From an uncultured Gammaproteobacteria bacterium (GTDB lineage: Bacteria > Patescibacteriota > Patescibacteriia > Magasanikbacterales > GWA2-37-8), in assembly GCA_964516735.1 (NCBI GenBank), contig CAZEYR010000003.1:1-47591 (forward strand): 47,591 nt of DNA. Reading direction: 5' to 3'. The position numbers and the translations under genes are program-made. This document shows positions 4,441-17,912 of this stretch, one piece after another (position 1 is the stretch's first letter; each line of letters starts with the position of its first letter). The notes beneath the pieces were generated by a model that saw only the letters and a list, made by a program, of their open reading frames with translations, ran no database searches and was not told the origin of the DNA.

Positions 4441-5862
4441 ATGAATACCAACGAAGTTTGGCGCGCTGTCTTAGCCGAGCTCGAGCTTTCTATTTCCAAA
4501 GCTAATTTTATCACGTGGTTTAAAAATACTGGAATTATTTCACTACAAGACGGCAACGTTTCGTTGTGTGTTCCCAACACCTTTACCCGTGCTTGGTTAG
4601 AAAAAAAATACCACCAAGCTATTATTAAATCACTAGAAAGAATTACCAGTAAACCCATCAAAAAACTAGAATATAAAATAGAAAACATAAAAAACGTTCC
4701 GGAACAAAGTATAAACCCGGCATCTCAACCAAAAAATGATGAATTAAACTCTTTTCACAGCAACCCACCCCAGCCTTCTTCTACTGTTTCCACTCGTTTT
4801 TCTACGCCACCCACTAGCTCCAGCGGTAGTTTTACCCTTAATTCCAAATATACTTTTGATAATTTCGTGGTCGGAAAAGGCACTGAGTTAGCTTTTGCCG
4901 CCGCCCAAGCTGTTACTAATCGGCCCGGCGAAGCCTATAATCCACTTTTTATCTATGGTGGCGTCGGTTTAGGAAAAACCCATCTTTTACAAGCTATCGG
5001 CAATACTTTGCTTAAAAACAACCCTAGTTGCAACATTATGTACACTAGCGCCGAAAAATTTTCTAATGATTTTATCTCTTCAATCAAAGACGGCACCGCT
5101 AAAGAGTTTCAAAACCGCTATCGCCATATCGACCTGCTTTTAATTGACGATATTCAATTTATTGCCGGCAAAGACCGCACCCAAGAATCCTTTTTTCATA
5201 CTTTCAATGACCTACACCAACAAAACAAACAGGTAGTTTTAACCTCTGACCGCCCACCAAAAGCCATTCCCGCCTTAGAAGACCGTTTAAAATCACGTTT
5301 TGAGTGGGGAATGATCGCGGATGTCGCCGCTCCTGATCTAGAAACCAGAATTGCTATTCTGGAAAAGAAAAGTGTTGAAAAAAATTACCCTCTTGAGAAA
5401 GACATTATTGAAACCATCGCCACTATCGTCCAAAACAACATTCGTGAGCTGGAAGGCTCTTTAAACAAAGTTATCGCCTATCACCAGCTCAAAAACGCTG
5501 TACCATCAAAAGAATCAGTAAAAAACCTATTATCCAGCTCGGAAAACACTTCTATGCGCCGCTCTTTAACATCTCAACAACTTATCACCACAGTTTCTTC
5601 GTTCTATAACATTACTACCGACGATATTTTGTCTAAAAACCGTGAAAAAAAACTTTCTTTTCCTCGCCAAATCATCATGTACTTAATGCGCGAAGATTTA
5701 AAAATGTCTTATCCGGCTATCGGCGACGAACTAGGAGGTCGCGATCACACCACTGCTATGCATGCCCACACCAAGATCGCTAGCGAAATCGAAAACGATT
5801 TAAAATTAAAACAAGAAATCGAGCTAATTAAGCAAAAATTATACATTAACAACCAAAATTAA
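4441..5862 (+). CDS. dnaA: chromosomal replication initiator DnaA
   Basis: 473 aa. Walker A GGVGLGKTHL, LLIDDIQF, a sensor region, and a C-terminal DNA-binding helix with GGRDHTT. Confidence 0.95.
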   Translation: MNTNEVWRAVLAELELSISKANFITWFKNTGIISLQDGNVSLCVPNTFTRAWLEKKYHQAIIKSLERITSKPIKKLEYKIENIKNVPEQSINPASQPKNDELNSFHSNPPQPSSTVSTRFSTPPTSSSGSFTLNSKYTFDNFVVGKGTELAFAAAQAVTNRPGEAYNPLFIYGGVGLGKTHLLQAIGNTLLKNNPSCNIMYTSAEKFSNDFISSIKDGTAKEFQNRYRHIDLLLIDDIQFIAGKDRTQESFFHTFNDLHQQNKQVVLTSDRPPKAIPALEDRLKSRFEWGMIADVAAPDLETRIAILEKKSVEKNYPLEKDIIETIATIVQNNIRELEGSLNKVIAYHQLKNAVPSKESVKNLLSSSENTSMRRSLTSQQLITTVSSFYNITTDDILSKNREKKLSFPRQIIMYLMREDLKMSYPAIGDELGGRDHTTAMHAHTKIASEIENDLKLKQEIELIKQKLYINNQN

Positions 5863-6196
5863 TTTTGTTTTGCTCTTTTTATCTTTAATCTTAGCCAAAA
5901 AATACGATTATCTGCAAATTTTAAATAAGTGTGAATAACCTGTTAACAAACTGTAAATAAGTCTGTGCAATAGTTGTAAAATTATCAACACCAAAGTGGA
6001 CAAGTTGGTTAAATTTTATCATCGACCAACTTATACACTTTTCTGTAAACTTTTCATTCACAACCTACCCACAAGCACACTTACCAACTTTTGCCTTACT
6101 TAACACAAAAATAAAACTTATTCACTTTATCCACACTATTATTAATATTATTATTTATCTATATATACATAAAATATAATCTTATAATAAATAACT
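5863..6196. other. candidate oriC (dnaA-dnaN intergenic region)
   Basis: DnaA-box-like 9-mers: TGTGAATAA 5930-5938, AGTGGACAA 5995-6003, TTATACACT 6031-6039, TCATTCACA 6054-6062. Tandem TTATTCACT (6118-6126) plus perfect TTATCCACA (6127-6135) follow, then an almost pure A/T stretch at 6136-6196. Confidence 0.7.
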
Positions 6197-7315
6197 ATGA
6201 AATTTTCCTGCACTAGGGACAATTTGGCCCAAGCACTATCTTTGGTAAGTGGTATCGCTACCAAAAGTAATAATTTACCGATTCTAGCCAACGTGCTTTT
6301 AAAGGTAGATTCACAAAAAGTGGAAATAGCAGCTACTAATTTAGAGGTGGCAGTGGTAGTCAATGTTCGAGCTAAAATTGAAAAAGAGGGAAGTTATACT
6401 GTACCAGCCAGAACATTGGCCGATTATGTAAATCTGTTATCTGATGAAAAAATAGATTTGGAATTAAAAGAAAACGAATTGTGGGTAGTTTGTGGAAAAA
6501 CATCTACAAAAATTAAAGGGTCGCCAGCTGATGAATATCCGGTTATACCGGCAGCCGACAATGGAAAAGGCTATGTGATTAAGTCTGATGAGTTAAAAAA
6601 GGGGTTATCGCAGGTGTCGGGGGCGGCAGCTAAAAGTGATATTCGACCAGAGTTGTCCGGTGTGTTGTTTAGTCTTATGTCCACCGGTTTAACTATGGCC
6701 GCCACTGACAGCTATCGTTTGGCGGAAAAAAGGATTCCATTATTACAAGGAAGTGATGAAAGTCGGGTAATAGTACCGGGTCGCACCGCTCATGAGATTA
6801 GTCATATTTTGTCTGGGGTTGATAGTATTGAAGAAGGAGAGAAAAACGTTCGGGTGTTAATAAGTGATAGCCAGATAATAGTGCATTATGGAAACGTGCA
6901 ATTAATTTCTCGATTGGTGGATGGGCAATACCCAGACTATACCCAAATTATTCCCAAAGAGTATAAAACCATAGCTGAGTTTTCTACGAACAAAATGACC
7001 AAGGAGGTAAAAGCGGCCAGCCTCTTCACTACGACTGGTATAAACGCAATTTCAGTCGATTTAAACACATCCCAGGGGTCGATTGGCATCTCCTCTACAT
7101 CTACTCAAACCGGTGAATACAATTCAGAAATTTCTGCTGAGATAAAAGGTGAAGAAAATTCAGTTTTGTTAAATCACCGTTATGTTTTAGACGGGTTGGG
7201 AAATATGGAAAAAGAAACCACTGTAATGAAAGTGGTAAATGCTGATAACCCTTGTTTATTTTTGTCAAAAGACGATGATAGTTATTTGTATATAGTAATG
7301 CCAATTAGACAATAG
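6197..7315 (+). CDS. dnaN: DNA polymerase III beta sliding clamp
   Basis: 372 aa, directly downstream of dnaA. N-terminal MKF.C....L and an overall three-domain length. Confidence 0.95.
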   Translation: MKFSCTRDNLAQALSLVSGIATKSNNLPILANVLLKVDSQKVEIAATNLEVAVVVNVRAKIEKEGSYTVPARTLADYVNLLSDEKIDLELKENELWVVCGKTSTKIKGSPADEYPVIPAADNGKGYVIKSDELKKGLSQVSGAAAKSDIRPELSGVLFSLMSTGLTMAATDSYRLAEKRIPLLQGSDESRVIVPGRTAHEISHILSGVDSIEEGEKNVRVLISDSQIIVHYGNVQLISRLVDGQYPDYTQIIPKEYKTIAEFSTNKMTKEVKAASLFTTTGINAISVDLNTSQGSIGISSTSTQTGEYNSEISAEIKGEENSVLLNHRYVLDGLGNMEKETTVMKVVNADNPCLFLSKDDDSYLYIVMPIRQ

Positions 7316-7371: not shown

Positions 7372-10242
7372 TTATTTTATCCAGATAGCAATAGTGCTTT
7401 CAGTGGTTTGGTTAGTTTTGCTAGTACAAACAGCTTTTAGTTGGTAATTTCCGGTATTTGGTGAGTGCTTCCACGTAAAAGTTAAATTATTATTATCTAG
7501 TTTGTCGTTGTGATCAAAGGTATAAATTAATTTTTCTATTGAACCGGAAACTAAAATAATTTTTATGTCTTTGGTATCACCCCAACGGAAAGGAGTAAGA
7601 GTAAACACCCGTGGAAAATCATCTGGGTTGAGAGTGGTGTCACCCCCAAACCAAACTGCAGTCGGCGGGTCAAAATCAGCAGTGAGGTTGAAGACGATTT
7701 CTTTGGTGGTGGAATTGCCCTGATCGTCTTGAGCGGTGGCAGATAGGGTATGTTGTCCGGGGTTTAAAGTACGGGCGTAATATTCCAGCCCAAAAGGAAA
7801 AATTGTGCTGGCGCCAATATCTTTATTATCGATTTGATAAAATACTTTGGTGATGCCGCGAGGGGCAGAAGCTTGGACTTGAATAGAAAATTGACGGGTA
7901 TTAATTTCACCAGAGAGAGGGGTGATAATTTCTATTTTGGGTGCTAGAGTCGGGTCGGTGATGGTATTGTCGTATTCGGTTGGGGGATCTTCTAAACTCA
8001 CAATATTACCTTTTTCGTATTCTCTTTTTACCCAATCTTGTAAAGCGTTTTCCCAATTAAAATATTGCGGGTCATCGCTTGGGTTTGTTGGAATTGGTCC
8101 TTGTGGGTCGTTGCGATCTACATAATGTAAAATATCATGAGATGGTAAAAAAGTTTTTTCTATAATAGCCCCGGCCGGAGTGGATGATGTGGCAATTAGG
8201 TTATTAAATTTGTTTATTTTTATATTTATTCCGCCATCGTTACCATGTAAAACTGGTTTGGTGGTTTCAGTGGTTGGTGGGGCGGGAAACTGTTCAACCG
8301 GGGTGTTTTTTAGAGCTTCGCGCATATAAGTGTTCCAAATTTGTCCAGCCAAAGTGTTGCCACCACCCTTCATGGTAGACGGGTTGGTGTTTCCGACCCA
8401 AACGCCAGTAGCTAAAGATGGGGTAAAACCCATGGTCCAAGCGTCAAAATAGTTGTTAGTAGTACCAGTTTTTGCGGCCACTGGACGTCCGGGCAGGGTA
8501 AGAGTGCTGTTGCGTCCAAAAATATAAGCGCGAGCAGTATCGTCACTTAAAACATTAGCAATGGTGGCGGCTAATTCCGGTTTTACTGCTTCAGAGCCAT
8601 CAGTTGGTTTCCATTCATATAAATTGTTTCCATTGGTATCGTCTACTTTTAAAATACTAACTGGCGAGTGGAAAAGACCGCTGTCGGCCAGGGTGGCGTA
8701 GGCATTGGTATGCTCCAAGAGATTAACTTCAGCTCCGCCCAACACCAGGCTTAAACCCGGATCACCGGTAAACGTGGTATAACCAAATCTTTTGGCAAAT
8801 TCAATGGTTTCTTTAGTACCCACAAGATATAAAGTTTTTACAGCCGGTATGTTAAGAGATCCTTGTAAAGCCGTTCGAATAGTCACCAGACCATGTTCTT
8901 TATTATCGTAATTTTTTGGCGTGTATTTTTCCCCGGTACGCATGTCAAAGTTGGTTAAAACATCATATAAAACCGTATCTGGAGTGTATCCTTTTTCAAA
9001 AGCATAAGTGTAAACAAAGGGTTTAAAAGAAGAACCCGGCTGTCTTTTGCCAAGTACCGCCACATTAAATTGGCCATCGATTTCTTCGTTGAAAAAATCA
9101 CGGGAGCCAACCATAGCTAAGACTTGAGCGGTTTTTGGGTCAATAGAAACTAAAGCGGCATTGTTGGCGTTGTATTCTTTGGCGTATTTGTCGCCTAGTG
9201 TTTTTACTGTTTCCTCGGCTAATTTTTGTTTATCAAAATCCAAAGTGGTGATTACTTTTAAACCACCGCTGTCAACGGTTTTTTCTCCAAATTGGTCGGC
9301 CAATAATTGTTTTACATACAAAACAAAATGTGGAGCGGCTTTGATGCCGGCCGACTTGGTAATTTTTAATTCTTGTCCAACAGCCTCGATTTTTTGAACT
9401 TCGGAAATATAACCTTGTTCCACCATCAGTTTTAAAACATAATCGCGGCGTTCTCTTAATACGTCGGTGTGGTTTAGATAATAGCTCGGTCGTTGAATTA
9501 AGGCGGCTAAACTGGCGCTTTCGGCTAAGGTTAGGTCTTTAGCACTTTTTTGAAAATAAGATTGGGCGGCGGATTCGACACCGTAGTTAGTAGAGCCAAA
9601 TGGAATTTCGTTTAAATACATCTGTAAAATTTGATCTTTAGTGTATTTTTTTTCCAAACGAGGGGCTAATACGAGCTCTTTTACTTTTCGTACTACTTTG
9701 TGGAAAATATCTTTTTTGTCACCGATAATAGCGTTTTTAATTAATTGTTGAGTGATGGTGGAGGCGCCGCCACTGCCAGAATTGGTGTTTAGTAAATTGC
9801 TCACCATGGCGCGAGCGATACTAATGTAGCGCACGCCTTTGTGTTCGTAAAAATGCTTGTCTTCGATGGCTACCACGGCTTTGGGTAAAAAGGGATTCAT
9901 TTGGTCTAGGGTAACCGAGGTTCTTTTTTGATCTTGATAGATTTCGTATAAGATGTGGGTGCCGGTGCGGTCGTAGATTTTAGTACTTTGAGAAATTTGG
10001 CGGTCGGTTAGTTTGCTTGGGTCGGGTAAATCACTGCTAATCCACGCAAAGGCAATGGTGCCAAAAATAAAAAAGAAAGCCACGGCAACAACCCCAAACA
10101 TTAGGGCTTTTTTAATCAAGAACTTCGTTATTTTTGGTTTTTTAAACCTAAAGCCACGACCGAAATTAGAATTTGGGTCGTTTTGGCCAAGTTCACCATA
10201 GGAACGGTTGGCTCGAGGGTTAAGTTGAGGGATTGGAGACAT
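7372..10242 (-). CDS. class A penicillin-binding protein (glycosyltransferase + transpeptidase) with a long C-terminal beta-rich extension
   Basis: GT51 motifs EDKHFYEH.G and GASTITQQL, and transpeptidase motifs SSFKP and KTGTT. The start is set at MSPIPQ (10242) because the predicted promoter -10 (10265-10270) lies downstream of the track's ATG at 10302. Confidence 0.85.
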   Translation of the reverse strand: MSPIPQLNPRANRSYGELGQNDPNSNFGRGFRFKKPKITKFLIKKALMFGVVAVAFFFIFGTIAFAWISSDLPDPSKLTDRQISQSTKIYDRTGTHILYEIYQDQKRTSVTLDQMNPFLPKAVVAIEDKHFYEHKGVRYISIARAMVSNLLNTNSGSGGASTITQQLIKNAIIGDKKDIFHKVVRKVKELVLAPRLEKKYTKDQILQMYLNEIPFGSTNYGVESAAQSYFQKSAKDLTLAESASLAALIQRPSYYLNHTDVLRERRDYVLKLMVEQGYISEVQKIEAVGQELKITKSAGIKAAPHFVLYVKQLLADQFGEKTVDSGGLKVITTLDFDKQKLAEETVKTLGDKYAKEYNANNAALVSIDPKTAQVLAMVGSRDFFNEEIDGQFNVAVLGKRQPGSSFKPFVYTYAFEKGYTPDTVLYDVLTNFDMRTGEKYTPKNYDNKEHGLVTIRTALQGSLNIPAVKTLYLVGTKETIEFAKRFGYTTFTGDPGLSLVLGGAEVNLLEHTNAYATLADSGLFHSPVSILKVDDTNGNNLYEWKPTDGSEAVKPELAATIANVLSDDTARAYIFGRNSTLTLPGRPVAAKTGTTNNYFDAWTMGFTPSLATGVWVGNTNPSTMKGGGNTLAGQIWNTYMREALKNTPVEQFPAPPTTETTKPVLHGNDGGINIKINKFNNLIATSSTPAGAIIEKTFLPSHDILHYVDRNDPQGPIPTNPSDDPQYFNWENALQDWVKREYEKGNIVSLEDPPTEYDNTITDPTLAPKIEIITPLSGEINTRQFSIQVQASAPRGITKVFYQIDNKDIGASTIFPFGLEYYARTLNPGQHTLSATAQDDQGNSTTKEIVFNLTADFDPPTAVWFGGDTTLNPDDFPRVFTLTPFRWGDTKDIKIILVSGSIEKLIYTFDHNDKLDNNNLTFTWKHSPNTGNYQLKAVCTSKTNQTTESTIAIWIK

Positions 10243-13921: not shown

Positions 13922-14256
13922 TAAAAAAATAAGGGCGCAGAAACCCGATAATCAAATTGATATGTGGTCCTCGCCCTTAGGTAGCTGTCTAAGGCGAGAT
14001 GTAACAGACCAAATGAGGTCGTGACATACGAAACACCTTGACAGAAACCGCCTACCGCTCAGGGGTATTAACCTCGGTGCCAGTAAGACTCATTGAGCCA
14101 AACTAGCTATTTGGGGTGAGGTTACCCGTAAAGAAGTTAGGCAAGCCACTATTTTTATTTTACTATGCCTTTTTATTAAGAATAGTGGTCGACTTACTTC
14201 CTTTAAAGTAGCAGTGATGGTCGGTTGTTAGGTTTTGCAAAGAGCTTATCTTTACG
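13922..14256 (-). ncRNA. structured RNA of about 330 nt; possible RNase P RNA (identity uncertain)
   Basis: This block is richer in G+C than its flanks and has no plausible ORF. It has its own consensus promoter and a 3' hairpin plus U-run (AAGGGCG ... CGCCCTT then TTATTTTTTT on the minus strand). Minus-strand motifs occur in RNase P-like order: AAAGGAAGUAAGUC, ACGGGUAACCUCACCCCAAAUAG, GGUAGGC, GUCACGAC. I could not reconstruct a canonical P4 helix or specificity domain. Confidence 0.45.
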
Positions 14257-14262
14257 TTATAT

Positions 14263-14291
14263 ACTATACCATATTTCGTGGAACATGTCAA
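14263..14291 (-). promoter_or_regulatory. promoter of the ~330-nt RNA
   Basis: Minus strand: TTGACA (rc of 14286-14291), 17 nt, TATAGT (rc of 14263-14268). Confidence 0.55.
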
Positions 14292-14388
14292 GCATTAGTA
14301 GTTTAGTATATTTTTATGCTAAGATTAGCCAATAAGTAGCTAGCAGTAGCGAAAATTTTTGTTTACACTATTGTAAACAAACAACCAC

Positions 14389-14532: not shown

Positions 14533-17115
14533 ATGAGGGGTAAAATATTGGGACTGGCGACTTTGGGGATGGTCGGCAGTTTTTTTATTTATATTTTAGG
14601 AGCGGGGGCGGCACCTAATGACATTATAATCAATGAAATTGGGGCTTATGAGCCAACCGGATATGAATGGGTAGAGATCTGGAACAAAGGAACAGAGCCG
14701 GTAGACATAAAAGATTGGAAGTTTTATGAAAGTGACGGCCCAAACCACAAGAGTTTTGTCCTTAAAAGCGGTGTTGATTATCTTATAGATCAGGGAGAGT
14801 ATGCGGTAATTTGCCAAGACGATATTAAATTTTTAGCCAAATATTCCAATTTTAGTGGCACCTTATTAGACTCAGCGTGGAATGGGTTAAACGAAGCGGG
14901 TAAAGAAATCGGTCTAAACGATGCCAAGGGCAGCACAATTGAAAGATTTACTTATATTCCCGCTCCTAATTACTCTTTGCAAAGAAAAGATTCAAATTTT
15001 GTGGACTATACCAGTAATAATTGGCAAGAACATATTAGTGGGAATACAGTGGGGGCGATTAATGTGTTTGAGCAAACACCGTCAGATAGCGCAAATGATC
15101 AAGGTGGCATGGCTGACCAAGCCGAAGAGGTACTTAGTCAGCCGGTAGTGGAATCGGTAATAGAAAATGTGGAGCCGGTGGTGGAGTATAGAGACATTCA
15201 ATTAAATGAGATTGTAGTTAATCCTGAAGAAGGAAATGAGTGGGTGGAGTTGTATAATTTTGGTAATTTGGCCGCTGGTTTAAGTGGATGGTTGTTGTGT
15301 GATGCCAGAAATACCAATTCTACTTGTAAAAAAATAAATGGCGATATTGCCAAAGGAGAATGGTTAAAATTGGACTTGCACACCACTACTTATTTAAATA
15401 ATGATGGTGATAGTGTGATTTTAAAAAATCCATCTGGCACAGTGGTTGACCAAGTGGCTTACGATGAAGAAAAAATCGGATTGCCGGCTGCTGGGCAAAG
15501 TTTGGTTAGAAAAGAAAATGGCGGCTGGGCTATCTCCGAGACAATCACTCCGGGTGAGAAAAATATTATCACTGAAGAAGTGATAGGTGAAAATAATAAA
15601 GCAATTGCCGTTACTAGCACCGTAAAAACAATTAGCAAAACAAAAAATCAAATTGGCGATAAAAAAGACGAAGTAAATATCGTTTGGAAAGGAAAAATTC
15701 CAACACAGGGTGCGCCACAAGAAAAAATAACTTTTGATGTTTCTGCCTCGGCCGATCCGCGCGGCGGAAATATTTTTTATAACTGGGATTTTGGCGATGG
15801 GAGTAATTTGGATGGTGGGGTGGTAGAGCATGTTTTTGCTACTTCTGGTTTGTTTATGGTTAAGGTTACGGCCACCAGCACGGTTGGCACGGTAGACGAA
15901 AAAAGTTACAAAATTTCTATTGGAAAAGAATTAACAGTGAGTAATAATGGAGTGGTGATTACCGAAGTTTTACCCAATCCAAATGGAGATGACAGTGAGG
16001 AGTTTATTGAGCTATACAATAAAAGCAAGCAAACTATTGATGTCGCGGGTTGGTTGCTTAAATATGACGACAAGGATTATATTTTTCCAGAAAAAACCAT
16101 AATTCACGCTGATAGTTTTTTAATTTTTAAAAGAGCGGTTACTAAATTTAGTTTGAACAATCAGGGTGGAGAAATTGAACTTTTAACGCCGGATAAAAAT
16201 TTGGCGAATAAAATAGAATATGGTGTTGCTAAATCCGGACAGAGTCATAATTATTTTAATGAACAATTTTGGGTGAGTGAGCCAAACCCTAGAATTTTGT
16301 CGGTGTCAGTCGAGGCGGAATTTTTAAATGATAAAACAAGCAGCGGGGTAAACAAAGAATTTGCAGGGGCGAGTCAGACCGGCAGTTCATCCAAAACTTC
16401 CGGACAGTGGGTTAGGGTGACTGGGGTGGTGAGTGTGGTGCCAAAAATTTTTGGCACGCAGTATTTTTATATTTCTACTATGGATGATGCTTATCAGGTT
16501 TATCAATATAAAAAAGATTTTCCAGAATTAAAAAATGGCGATGAAATTTCGGTGCAAGGTAATTTGGGGTTAATCGGGCAAACGAAAAGAATAAAAATAA
16601 AAAGCCGGAATGATATAGACGTTTTGTCGACAGAAAACAATTTAGTGGCGGTAGAGATGACGCCGGAAGAAGTGGCGCAAGAGGAAACAATTTTGGGAAG
16701 TTTGGTGAAAATTAATGGGGAGATCACGGAGATTAAAAGCAATTATATGTATGTGGATGATGGGTCGGCAGAAATTGAGGTGTATTTCAAGCAAGGAGCG
16801 GAAATCGATAAGAAAAAATTTGCTGAGGGTCAGCTAGTAGAGGTGGTGGGAATAGTAGGAGAAAACAAAAATGAAAAACAAGTTTGGCCAAGATCTAACG
16901 AAGATGTGGTGGTAATGGGAGTGTCAGATGATTTATTAAAAAAACAAAATTTAAATAATGAGAATAAAGAGTTGCCAAAAAAGTATTTGGGAGTGGTGGG
17001 TGGTGGGGCGGCAATGATGCTTTTGGGATTTTTGGCTCGGGCGCGAGCAGGGATAATAAAAAACACCGCTCAAAAGGCGGCGATAATAATTGGTGGTTGG
17101 TTTAAGAAAAAATAA
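14533..17115 (+). CDS. cell-surface protein with three lamin-tail domains, a PKD domain, an OB-fold-like module and a C-terminal membrane anchor
   Basis: N-terminal signal/TM. Three segments fit the LTD pattern (I.INEI.......EWVE.YN....V.L.GW.L). The PKD-like stretch reads FDVSASADPRGG.IFYNWDFGDGS. A WVRVTGVV... segment resembles nuclease-associated OB folds. C-terminal hydrophobic helix plus KKK. Confidence 0.8.
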   Translation: MRGKILGLATLGMVGSFFIYILGAGAAPNDIIINEIGAYEPTGYEWVEIWNKGTEPVDIKDWKFYESDGPNHKSFVLKSGVDYLIDQGEYAVICQDDIKFLAKYSNFSGTLLDSAWNGLNEAGKEIGLNDAKGSTIERFTYIPAPNYSLQRKDSNFVDYTSNNWQEHISGNTVGAINVFEQTPSDSANDQGGMADQAEEVLSQPVVESVIENVEPVVEYRDIQLNEIVVNPEEGNEWVELYNFGNLAAGLSGWLLCDARNTNSTCKKINGDIAKGEWLKLDLHTTTYLNNDGDSVILKNPSGTVVDQVAYDEEKIGLPAAGQSLVRKENGGWAISETITPGEKNIITEEVIGENNKAIAVTSTVKTISKTKNQIGDKKDEVNIVWKGKIPTQGAPQEKITFDVSASADPRGGNIFYNWDFGDGSNLDGGVVEHVFATSGLFMVKVTATSTVGTVDEKSYKISIGKELTVSNNGVVITEVLPNPNGDDSEEFIELYNKSKQTIDVAGWLLKYDDKDYIFPEKTIIHADSFLIFKRAVTKFSLNNQGGEIELLTPDKNLANKIEYGVAKSGQSHNYFNEQFWVSEPNPRILSVSVEAEFLNDKTSSGVNKEFAGASQTGSSSKTSGQWVRVTGVVSVVPKIFGTQYFYISTMDDAYQVYQYKKDFPELKNGDEISVQGNLGLIGQTKRIKIKSRNDIDVLSTENNLVAVEMTPEEVAQEETILGSLVKINGEITEIKSNYMYVDDGSAEIEVYFKQGAEIDKKKFAEGQLVEVVGIVGENKNEKQVWPRSNEDVVVMGVSDDLLKKQNLNNENKELPKKYLGVVGGGAAMMLLGFLARARAGIIKNTAQKAAIIIGGWFKKK

Positions 17116-17124
17116 GGAAGGGGT

Positions 17125-17152
17125 GCCCGGGCGCGCAGGTGCGCGCCCGGGC
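17125..17152. repeat. perfect 12-bp inverted repeat, all G/C arms (GCCCGGGCGCGC aggt GCGCGCCCGGGC)
   Basis: Read directly. It lies between the LTD gene stop (17115) and the stop of the minus-strand GC-rich ORF (17176), so it is a probable transcription stop or stability hairpin. Confidence 0.6.
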
Positions 17153-17175
17153 GGGAGGTGAAGGATGTGGGGGTG

Positions 17176-17502
17176 CTAATCCTGGTCGCCCCCGAAGACC
17201 GCGTGGCAGAGGTTGGGGTGGGCGGCGAAGACATTGGAGAACTTCTTCGCTTGGGCCACCGTTGCCTTTTGGCGGAACTGGCCGAGGTCGAAGACCCCGA
17301 CCACACCCCGCGTGCCCCGGCTTTGGTGCAGGCCCGGGATGTCGTTTCCCATGGCCAGCCGGAGGGCGTCCACCCCGACGTAAATGTCCGGGATCAGGTG
17401 GCCCCGGATCAGAATCTGTGCTTCGTGGGTCCCCATCAGGAGACCCTTGATGGCACAGCTGTGCCGGGAGTCGGGGGGCTCTGAACGGCGCTTCTTTTTC
17501 AT
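17176..17502 (-). CDS. hypothetical 108-aa protein encoded in a high-GC block
   Basis: Of the six frames open across this block, only this one has a balanced amino-acid composition. GGAGG lies 5 nt upstream of the ATG at 17502, and third codon positions are strongly G/C. No family recognised. Confidence 0.5.
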   Translation of the reverse strand: MKKKRRSEPPDSRHSCAIKGLLMGTHEAQILIRGHLIPDIYVGVDALRLAMGNDIPGLHQSRGTRGVVGVFDLGQFRQKATVAQAKKFSNVFAAHPNLCHAVFGGDQD

Positions 17503-17552
17503 CGCTTCCTCCACGTTTAAGGTCGGCAAAAGCGCCAACCTTTTTCGGCAGA

Positions 17553-17581
17553 AGTATAGCTGTTCTTTTGAGTTTTGTCAA
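17553..17581 (-). promoter_or_regulatory. putative promoter of the GC-rich ORF
   Basis: Minus strand: TTGACA (rc of 17576-17581), 17 nt, TATACT (rc of 17553-17558), located in AT-rich DNA. Confidence 0.5.
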
Positions 17582-17639
17582 TTTTAAGCCTGAAAAAGGT
17601 TGATTTTTGTTTTTGCTTATGTTATTCTATAAAAAATTT

Positions 17640-17729
17640 GGAAGGGTGCGAGAGCGGTTTAATCGAACAGTCTTGAAAACTGTCGTCCATGCAAGTGGAC
17701 CGTGGGTTCGAATCCCACCCCTTCCGCCA
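17640..17729 (+). tRNA. tRNA-Ser (anticodon TGA), CCA encoded
   Basis: Acceptor GGAAGGG/CCCTTCC, anticodon stem ACAGT/ACTGT with loop CTTGAAA, long variable arm, T-arm GTGGG TTCGAAT CCCAC, discriminator G then CCA. Confidence 0.9.
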
Positions 17730-17912
17730 AGACAATTTATTATCGGCGCAGGCCCATATTCTTGGCTAAACATAGCTAAAATTACGGAGGACAAGGCGAC
17801 CCATATACCTAAAAATGTAAATAAGAACAACGACTTCACGGTCGCTGTTTTTATTTCTGCTATAAAAAGCAATTCTTTAGTAAAACTAATTTTTGAGATA
17901 TAATATAAACTA

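Follow-up and report, generated by a model that had tools for sequence, protein, structure and literature searches.

Between the gene for a surface protein with an LTD (lamin-tail) domain and the gene for the serine transfer RNA (tRNA) tRNA-Ser(UGA), the 47,591-nucleotide (nt) stretch of contig CAZEYR010000003.1 analyzed here, which we refer to throughout as the window, carries a sharply bounded block of G+C-rich DNA. The block holds a minus-strand open reading frame (ORF) of 108 amino acids (aa), preceded by a Shine-Dalgarno (SD) site and a promoter-like site and followed by a G/C hairpin (Table 1). An earlier interpretation of this DNA, made from its letters alone and called here the sequence-only reading, had offered three explanations for the block: recent acquisition from a high-GC donor, a chimeric assembly join, and a structured RNA that only mimics a coding frame. 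Our analysis supports the first of these.

Table 1. Features at the LTD/tRNA-Ser(UGA) junction, with coordinates in the window.
Feature	Position	Strand	Remarks
LTD surface-protein gene, 860 aa, with LTD (lamin-tail), PKD and OB-fold domains	14533..17115	+	stop codon abuts the block
Wrong-frame 159-aa ORF, Pro/Arg/Gly-rich	17102..17581	-	public gene calls (NCBI record, Logan L009 and L010)
Direct repeat AAAAAATNNGGAAGGG, left copy	17107..17122	+	overlaps the LTD stop and the start of the block
High-GC block, 65% G+C	17116..17545	.	between LTD stop and tRNA-Ser promoter; composition, and missing in three related lineages
Inverted repeat GCCCGGGCGCGCA/TGCGCGCCCGGGC, 13 bp	17125..17152	.	just 3′ of the 108-aa ORF, just past the LTD stop
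108-aa ORF, true coding frame, orphan protein	17502..17176	-	codon-position G+C, codon usage, homologue P0002, strain single-nucleotide variants
Shine-Dalgarno site GGAGG	17512..17508	-	5 nt ahead of the ATG at 17502
9-bp hairpin in the 5′ untranslated region (UTR)	17519..17542	-	weak feature; folding z = -2.6
Sigma-70-like promoter TTGACA-17-TATACT	17581..17553	-	consensus match alone, 11/12 positions; assigned to the 108-aa gene
Ancestral tRNA-Ser promoter-like region (TTGATT, 17 nt, TATTCT)	17600..17628	+	found by eye; under the scan threshold
Direct repeat AAAAAATNNGGAAGGG, right copy	17631..17646	+	9 nt upstream of tRNA-Ser and the first 7 nt of the tRNA
tRNA-Ser(UGA)	17640..17729	+	intact; syntenic neighbour of the LTD gene in 5/5 lineages examined

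The G+C content of 17116-17545 is 64.9%, against 39.3% for the whole window. When the window was scanned in 430-nt segments (mean 0.393, standard deviation 0.045), the maximum of 0.651 fell at 17121, and segments elsewhere than at the block reached at most 0.512. The rise is complete within about 10 nt of the LTD stop codon (17113-17115) and the drop comes at about 17545, in agreement with the abrupt boundaries previously described; a recount of 17281-17340 likewise returned exactly the 44 G+C reported there. Stop triplets are depleted 3.7-fold (density 0.014 in the block vs 0.052 in the window), and five of the six frames are open from stop to stop for 107-174 codons, as had also been proposed.

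The 108-aa ORF runs from an ATG at 17502 to a TAG at 17178..17176, and its G+C content at the first, second and third codon positions (GC1, GC2 and GC3) is 0.67, 0.41 and 0.84, so that GC3 > GC1 > GC2. This order, with such values, is the classic signature of a gene from a high-GC organism. GC3 in the host genes is 0.31-0.44, and the value in the ORF shows no drift toward them. On an index resembling the codon adaptation index and built on 31 host genes, the ORF scores 0.437 compared with 0.732 +/- 0.028 (z = -10.5), and 12 of its 108 codons are rare in the host. The sequence-only reading had pointed out the G/C-rich third positions of this minus-strand frame and had named codon usage as a check, and both measurements bear it out.

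The signals around the ORF set it apart from its neighbours as well. A full GGAGG within 25 nt of the start occurs before one of the 32 long ORFs checked, the 108-aa ORF. The earlier claim that an SD site is unique to it stands for the complete motif; it does not extend to partial sites, as four of the other 31 ORFs have a 4-nt match (GGAG before 32578; AAGG before 18097, 27398 and 39623). The remaining long ORFs have A/T-rich sequence ahead of their starts. The promoter assigned to the gene had been placed in host-like DNA, and the data are consistent with this: the tRNA-Ser promoter is conserved in relatives, which makes the AT-rich spacer ancestral in its right-hand part at least. At the 3′ side of the ORF lies the 12-bp all-G/C palindrome that had been described, extended by one A-T pair to a 13-bp stem and without a second copy in the window. 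It is a possible terminator stem for the 108-aa gene, the LTD gene or both. The minus-strand U-run begins 10 nt away from this 12-13-bp stem and the plus strand has no U-run, a layout that differs from the canonical one of an intrinsic terminator; a terminator scan of the window did not list it.

We reached related genomes through a list of LTD homologues; using the LTD protein to scan contigs of genomes and metagenomes gave distant matches only. The names attached to these homologues put the organism close to Candidatus Magasanikbacteria (Patescibacteria). From the LTD stop to tRNA-Ser(UGA), the spacer measures 48 nt in lineage P0004 (L005-L008; LTD identity 47%), 105 nt in P0008 (L012; 43%) and 50 nt in P0010 (L018; 41%), compared with 524 nt in the window. 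The tRNA-Ser promoter-like region, TTGATT ... TTATGTTA ... CTAT, is conserved in the window, L016, L012 and L018. The foreign DNA lies between the LTD stop and the tRNA-Ser promoter, as an insertion at a conserved junction. Its absence from the site in three related lineages, together with a GC3 of 0.84 and a codon usage 10.5 standard deviations off, supports recent acquisition from a high-GC source; the sister genomes do not show the conservation at this locus that the sequence-only reading had associated with an old resident gene.

A further lineage, P0016 (L016 and L017), carries an unrelated 1546-nt insertion between the LTD stop and the tRNA-Ser(UGA) promoter, at 5044-6590. It contains a minus-strand gene for a TrmB-family regulator, with about 29% G+C, and a pair of short Cys-rich ORFs (86 and 84 aa; about 50% G+C, vs about 30% in the flanks). 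Each of the small ORFs has AGGAG ahead of it; they are weakly zinc-ribbon-like and a hairpin terminator follows. Given this second, unrelated insertion, the junction looks recombination-prone, and the presence of unrelated insertions in two of five examined lineages suggests that it is a local hot spot.

Independent assemblies contain the same DNA. The LTD protein falls in a five-member cluster at 99% identity. Besides the NCBI contig of the window itself, the cluster comprises four Logan assemblies from separate sequencing runs, whose same-species loci are L009 (SRR27197509), L010 (SRR11845635), L011 (SRR27710297) and L004 (SRR31966183). The first three extend 580-614 nt beyond the LTD stop and include the entire block and AT-rich spacer as well as tRNA-Ser, in part or in full, at positions identical to those in the window. 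L004 shows the same left junction and ends 16 nt further on, within the G/C inverted repeat. The block is thus fixed in all four of the other same-species assemblies that reach the site (in L004, its left edge only). Within the block, L009, L010 and L011 each differ by 0-2 substitutions, with one 6-nt indel in total; the variants are 17239 G>A in L009, and 17394 T>G, 17176 C>T and a 6-nt insertion near 17172 in L011. Over the upstream 9-12.5 kb, the divergence among same-species assemblies is 0.1-0.3%. All four Logan contigs end at this locus, at window equivalents 17131 (L004), 17695 (L009), 17729 (L010) and 17701 (L011), three of them in or at the end of tRNA-Ser and one in the G/C inverted repeat; the probable cause is that the graph branches at the conserved tRNA and that the G/C hairpin is poorly covered.

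The protein encoded by the ORF has a single full-length homologue among about 15 billion proteins, P0002 (117 aa), with 31-34% identity. It was found by an exhaustive phmmer search of 1.84 billion cluster representatives (E = 5e-4, alignment over residues 12-107) and scores 8e-15 in a pairwise BLASTP comparison. The shared positions are C16, M23-G-T-H-E27, P56-G-L58, D72-L73 and H100-A-x-x-G-G-D106. A nucleotide comparison of the two genes found no similarity, and that they align as proteins all the same argues for conservation at the protein rather than the RNA level. The other phmmer match, P0001, a 3181-aa repeat protein aligned in 15 short stretches, was dropped as a match of repeats and composition. 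Word-indexed searches with the single protein and with a profile returned P0002 only. The 108-aa protein matched zero families in Pfam, NCBIfam, PHROGs and PADLOC, a Pfam scan of P0002 gave no family, and searches of PDB sequences, whether the query was the single protein or the two-sequence profile, gave noise only, in keeping with the earlier statement that no family could be recognized. Searches directed at a source were equally negative. The block had no blastn match in plasmids or in phages, and there was no match to phages by tblastn or to viral contigs in a scan with the family profile; a tblastn plasmid match at E = 0.4, lying under a ParB gene on the opposite strand, was spurious. No plausible donor lineage was found to hold a closer homologue than relatives do.

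P0002 is encoded on L001, an 8,960-nt contig of 41% G+C, between a phasin-like gene and an alanyl-tRNA synthetase gene. Its gene is a stand-alone unit with a promoter-like site, the motif AAAGGAGG and a terminator, and its GC3 of 0.54 is the highest on the contig. The sequence upstream of seven gene starts on this contig could be read, and an SD site is missing from five of them. Both known members of the family therefore look like guests in SD-poor, low-GC genomes. We found no flanking repeats around the P0002 gene in L001. The same contig carries, at 1615-2802, a 395-aa ORF that is its sole other strong-SD gene (AAAGGAGG) and has the second-highest GC3 (0.48), with no precomputed Pfam hit recorded; it may be another import into an SD-poor genome. 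At each of the two loci, a perfect inverted repeat of 10-11 nt surrounds the promoter and leader of the family gene: CAACCTTTTTC/GAAAAAGGTTG in the window (17536-17546 / 17592-17602, 45 nt apart, around the promoter and 5′ leader) and TGTTGACAAA/TTTGTCAACA in L001 (5239-5248 / 5332-5341, 83 nt apart). The letters of the repeats differ between the two, and the arrangement could be an operator-like layout or chance.

The block is protein-coding, in the 108-aa frame. The within-species variants in the ORF are F88F (synonymous), I37L and a stop-to-stop change, TAG>TAA, and the indel falls in the 3′ UTR; these changes are consistent with a maintained ORF, although three events are too few for proof. 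Compared with shuffled sequences, the minus strand of 17560..17100, flanking hairpins included, folds at z = -6.0 and the 108-aa ORF alone at z = -3.4, so that some mRNA structure in the block is possible. An Rfam scan gave no family for the block even at E <= 10, its sole match being tRNA-Ser, and the best non-tRNA scores were 12-20 bits vs gathering scores of 40-80. ARAGORN found only the tRNA, and no transfer-messenger RNA (tmRNA).

Public gene calls at this locus use a different frame. The 159-aa ORF of the NCBI record and of two Logan assemblies has a codon-position G+C content of 0.77/0.64/0.43, overlaps the LTD gene, and takes as its TTG start the first three bases of the -35 hexamer of the promoter. 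This frame had no match in Pfam, NCBIfam, PHROGs or PADLOC, and the plus-strand antisense frame gave sub-threshold matches only (two in Pfam, one in PHROGs). In the protein collection, the 159-aa product is present from both NCBI and Logan and the 108-aa product is not; because the public calls use the 159-aa frame, our first word-based search missed even the query itself. The true protein has therefore been invisible to protein searches, with databases carrying a meaningless off-frame product in its place, and the annotation is corrected here.

An AlphaFold2 model of the 108-aa protein, built from two sequences, has a mean predicted local distance difference test (pLDDT) score of 67. In the model, residues 1-27 are disordered and basic (MKKKRR...) and are followed by a beta-beta-alpha-beta-beta-alpha-alpha-alpha domain. 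Foldseek searches of the model against PDB and BFVD gave nothing at E < 0.2, the best values being 0.33 (PDB) and 0.24 (viral). The predicted basic tail suggests contact with nucleic acid, and conservation of Cys16, His26-Glu27, His100 and Asp106 between the two proteins suggests a putative metal or catalytic site, or a nucleic-acid binding site.

The block is real, inserted and foreign in composition, and it is read in the 108-aa frame. In our judgment it is probably a recently acquired foreign segment of about 430 nt, carrying one small protein gene, in one Candidatus Magasanikbacteria-like Patescibacterium species. The segment would have come from a donor of roughly 65% G+C, with the gene keeping the donor's codon usage and SD site, and would have entered between the LTD stop and the tRNA-Ser(UGA) promoter, a recombination-prone spot. 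We infer that the gene is expressed in its present host: transcription would start, divergent from the tRNA gene, at the sigma-70 promoter of near-consensus sequence on the margin of the AT-rich spacer and run toward the 13-bp G/C hairpin at the 3′ side, and SD-led translation would yield a cytoplasmic protein of 108 aa in which a basic, disordered tail at the N terminus precedes a small alpha/beta domain, whose conserved Cys16, His26-Glu27, His100 and Asp106 could form a metal or nucleic-acid binding site.

Several observations weigh against this account. The nearest relative without the block is distant (its LTD protein is 47% identical), so that 'recent' leans mainly on composition. The only homologue sits in a low-GC contig and has a library support of E = 5e-4, and no donor or close homologue was found among the roughly 15 billion proteins, nor in phage or plasmid DNA. 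An intact ORF in a recent import proves no selection in the recipient, for which three strain variants are too few. As RNA, the ORF folds somewhat better than shuffles (z = -3.4), and the protein model, of mediocre quality (pLDDT 67), has no match among known folds.

Of the explanations that compete with a recent import, a chimeric join or mis-assembled foreign fragment would readily account for the abrupt jump in composition, and the L004 contig does end 16 nt into the block, within the G/C inverted repeat. However, three assemblies from other runs hold the whole block with both junctions identical and the fourth holds the left junction, the same syntenic host genes, LTD and tRNA-Ser, stand on both sides, and the variant rate inside the block equals that of the flanks. 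Because the junctions are shared by independent assemblies, a chimera is refuted at the assembly level, and we give this option next to no weight. A G+C-rich structured non-coding RNA with an incidental ORF would fit the folding scores of -6.0 for the region and -3.4 for the ORF alone, the adjoining tRNA gene and the size of the block, which resembles that of RNase P RNA or tmRNA; stable RNAs are, moreover, frequently G+C-rich in AT-rich genomes. Yet the whole-region score is raised by the terminal hairpins and by mixed composition, and neither Rfam at E <= 10 nor ARAGORN recognized a family or a tmRNA in the block. The strict 3-nt periodicity of G+C, a full-length protein homologue without DNA similarity, strain changes that spare the protein, and the absence of the block from related lineages, unlike any housekeeping RNA, make this third option of the sequence-only reading very improbable.

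That the block is an old resident gene of odd composition, rather than an import, would agree with its fixation in all four other same-species assemblies reaching the site, with a promoter in host-like DNA and with a sole homologue in another low-GC genome. This too we hold to be highly unlikely, as the block is missing from the conserved LTD/tRNA-Ser junction in three related lineages, as mutation pressure would wear down a GC3 of 0.84 in a host whose genes have 0.31-0.44, and as the gene has the sole full GGAGG site among 32. A closer competitor accepts a recent foreign origin and holds the block to be a neutral passenger, inert in its host, with an ORF that is intact merely for lack of time. 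Within-species divergence is indeed only 0.1-0.3%, the codon usage is very badly matched to the host, the host otherwise has no full SD sites, and family, structure and fold searches gave no assignable function. On the other side, a near-consensus promoter, an ideally spaced SD site, an intact ORF and a 3′ hairpin are all there, none of the three variants in or at the ORF goes beyond a silent or conservative change, the single indel falls outside it, and the block is fixed in a streamlined genome. We regard an inert passenger as unlikely.

As to how a recent import might have entered, the direct repeat AAAAAATNNGGAAGGG links the left edge of the block with the 5′ end of the tRNA: followed by (G)TGC, it matches twice in the window, vs 0.12 expected. 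Similarity of the left edge to the tRNA beyond about 20 nt was not significant, and there is no integrase or transposase in or beside the block, since the 524-nt segment has only the 108-aa ORF and its flanks are syntenic host genes. One could propose that the block is a minimal cassette with site specificity for the 5′ edge of tRNA-Ser and that the 16-20-nt direct repeats serve as its attachment sites; both the restriction of AAAAAATNNGGAAGGG to the block's left edge and the tRNA 5′ end and the presence of another insertion at the same junction in a second lineage would suit this proposal. Besides the missing recombinase and the short extent of the similarity, however, the conserved tRNA promoter lies inside the repeat-bounded segment, a misfit to any simple attachment-site or target-duplication geometry, no comparable repeats surround P0002, and the chance of meeting such a repeat post hoc is not negligible. 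A cassette of this kind seems improbable to us, and we treat the repeat as a suggestive, unexplained trace of a recombination event that is no proof of a site-specific cassette. An imperfect inverted repeat of 18 nt (15/18; 17077-17094 / 17732-17749) around the LTD end, the block and tRNA-Ser is unique in the window but was rejected, being estimated at chance level for a 1.1-kb region.

A broader and rather doubtful conjecture is that the LTD/tRNA-Ser(UGA) junction is a dedicated capture site, at which AT-rich, nearly SD-free Patescibacteria repeatedly gain small genes with an SD site and elevated G+C. The sources would be unrelated organisms, perhaps the hosts of these bacteria, and the uptake would proceed without an integrase and leave a tRNA-5′-like repeat. 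If it were true, the 108-aa protein and P0002 would form a new mobile orphan family, and such imports could mark the partner organism.

Two further elements lie near the LTD gene. In the 660-nt ORF-free spacer upstream of it, on the minus strand at 13925-14292 of the window (L005 4983-5338), a non-coding unit of about 330 nt is conserved: its identity with the sister species, where the neighbouring LTD protein is only 47% identical, is 72% over 364 nt. The unit has a conserved TTGACA-17-TATAGT promoter and a conserved hairpin and U7 terminator, and folds at z = -5.4. RNAalifold, applied to the two species, predicts 80 pairs, of which 10 show compensatory double changes. The unit had no Rfam match at E <= 1 and was not recognized as a tmRNA by ARAGORN; it is a candidate new structured RNA, possibly of more interest than the high-GC block. 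The sister species, for its part, has a G+C-rich island of its own (about 56%) directly upstream of the LTD gene (L005 9100-9960; also in L006-L008). The island carries a 217-aa ORF for a predicted membrane protein (ATG, 9200..9853) with GGAGGAG 6 nt ahead of the ATG; read as 225 aa from an upstream GTG at 9176, its codon-position G+C content is 0.56/0.41/0.75. It has no Pfam match and no similarity to the block in the window.

The odd block is thus biology, not artefact, and offers a clean, datable case of a foreign gene in a streamlined Patescibacterial genome with its SD site and codon usage intact. It raises the question of whether a host that nearly never uses a full SD site can express an SD-led gene, and its donor, if found, might hint at a physical partner of these uncultured cells.

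Among known systems, the block shares with tRNA-targeting integrative elements (tyrosine-integrase islands and prophages) a direct repeat that includes part of a tRNA gene and flanks the insert. Such elements are known to bring an integrase of their own, to duplicate the tRNA's 3′ part and to be located on the 3′ side of the gene. Here no integrase is present, what the repeat duplicates is the 5′ end of the tRNA, with the insert on the 5′ side of the gene, and the host tRNA promoter falls within the repeat-bounded segment. An integron gene cassette is a promoterless ORF followed by an attC site with GTTRRRY core sites, whereas the block has its own promoter-like site and a 3′ G/C hairpin without GTTRRRY cores. 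Single-gene 'genomic islets' at tRNA genes are alike in their atypical G+C content and codon usage, tRNA adjacency and ORFan product, and in being missing from relatives at a conserved syntenic junction; unlike them, the block lies 5′ of the tRNA and not downstream, has no integrase and measures about 430-520 nt, and the searches turned up no donor. With G+C-rich stable-RNA genes (rRNA, tRNA, RNase P RNA, tmRNA) it has in common a sharp G+C island, tRNA adjacency and a good predicted fold, but it differs in its codon periodicity and protein homologue, has no Rfam match and is not kept in relatives. Horizontal transfer into Patescibacteria has been documented in a survey of groundwater metagenome-assembled genomes (PMC12455944), which likewise concerns individually transferred genes in ultra-small genomes with putative donors outside the phylum. 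That survey needs a recovered donor, whereas the gene described here has no donor or close homologue in the databases and is mis-called publicly. Individual transfer is a known kind of event, and what is added here is an orphan protein that current annotation misses.

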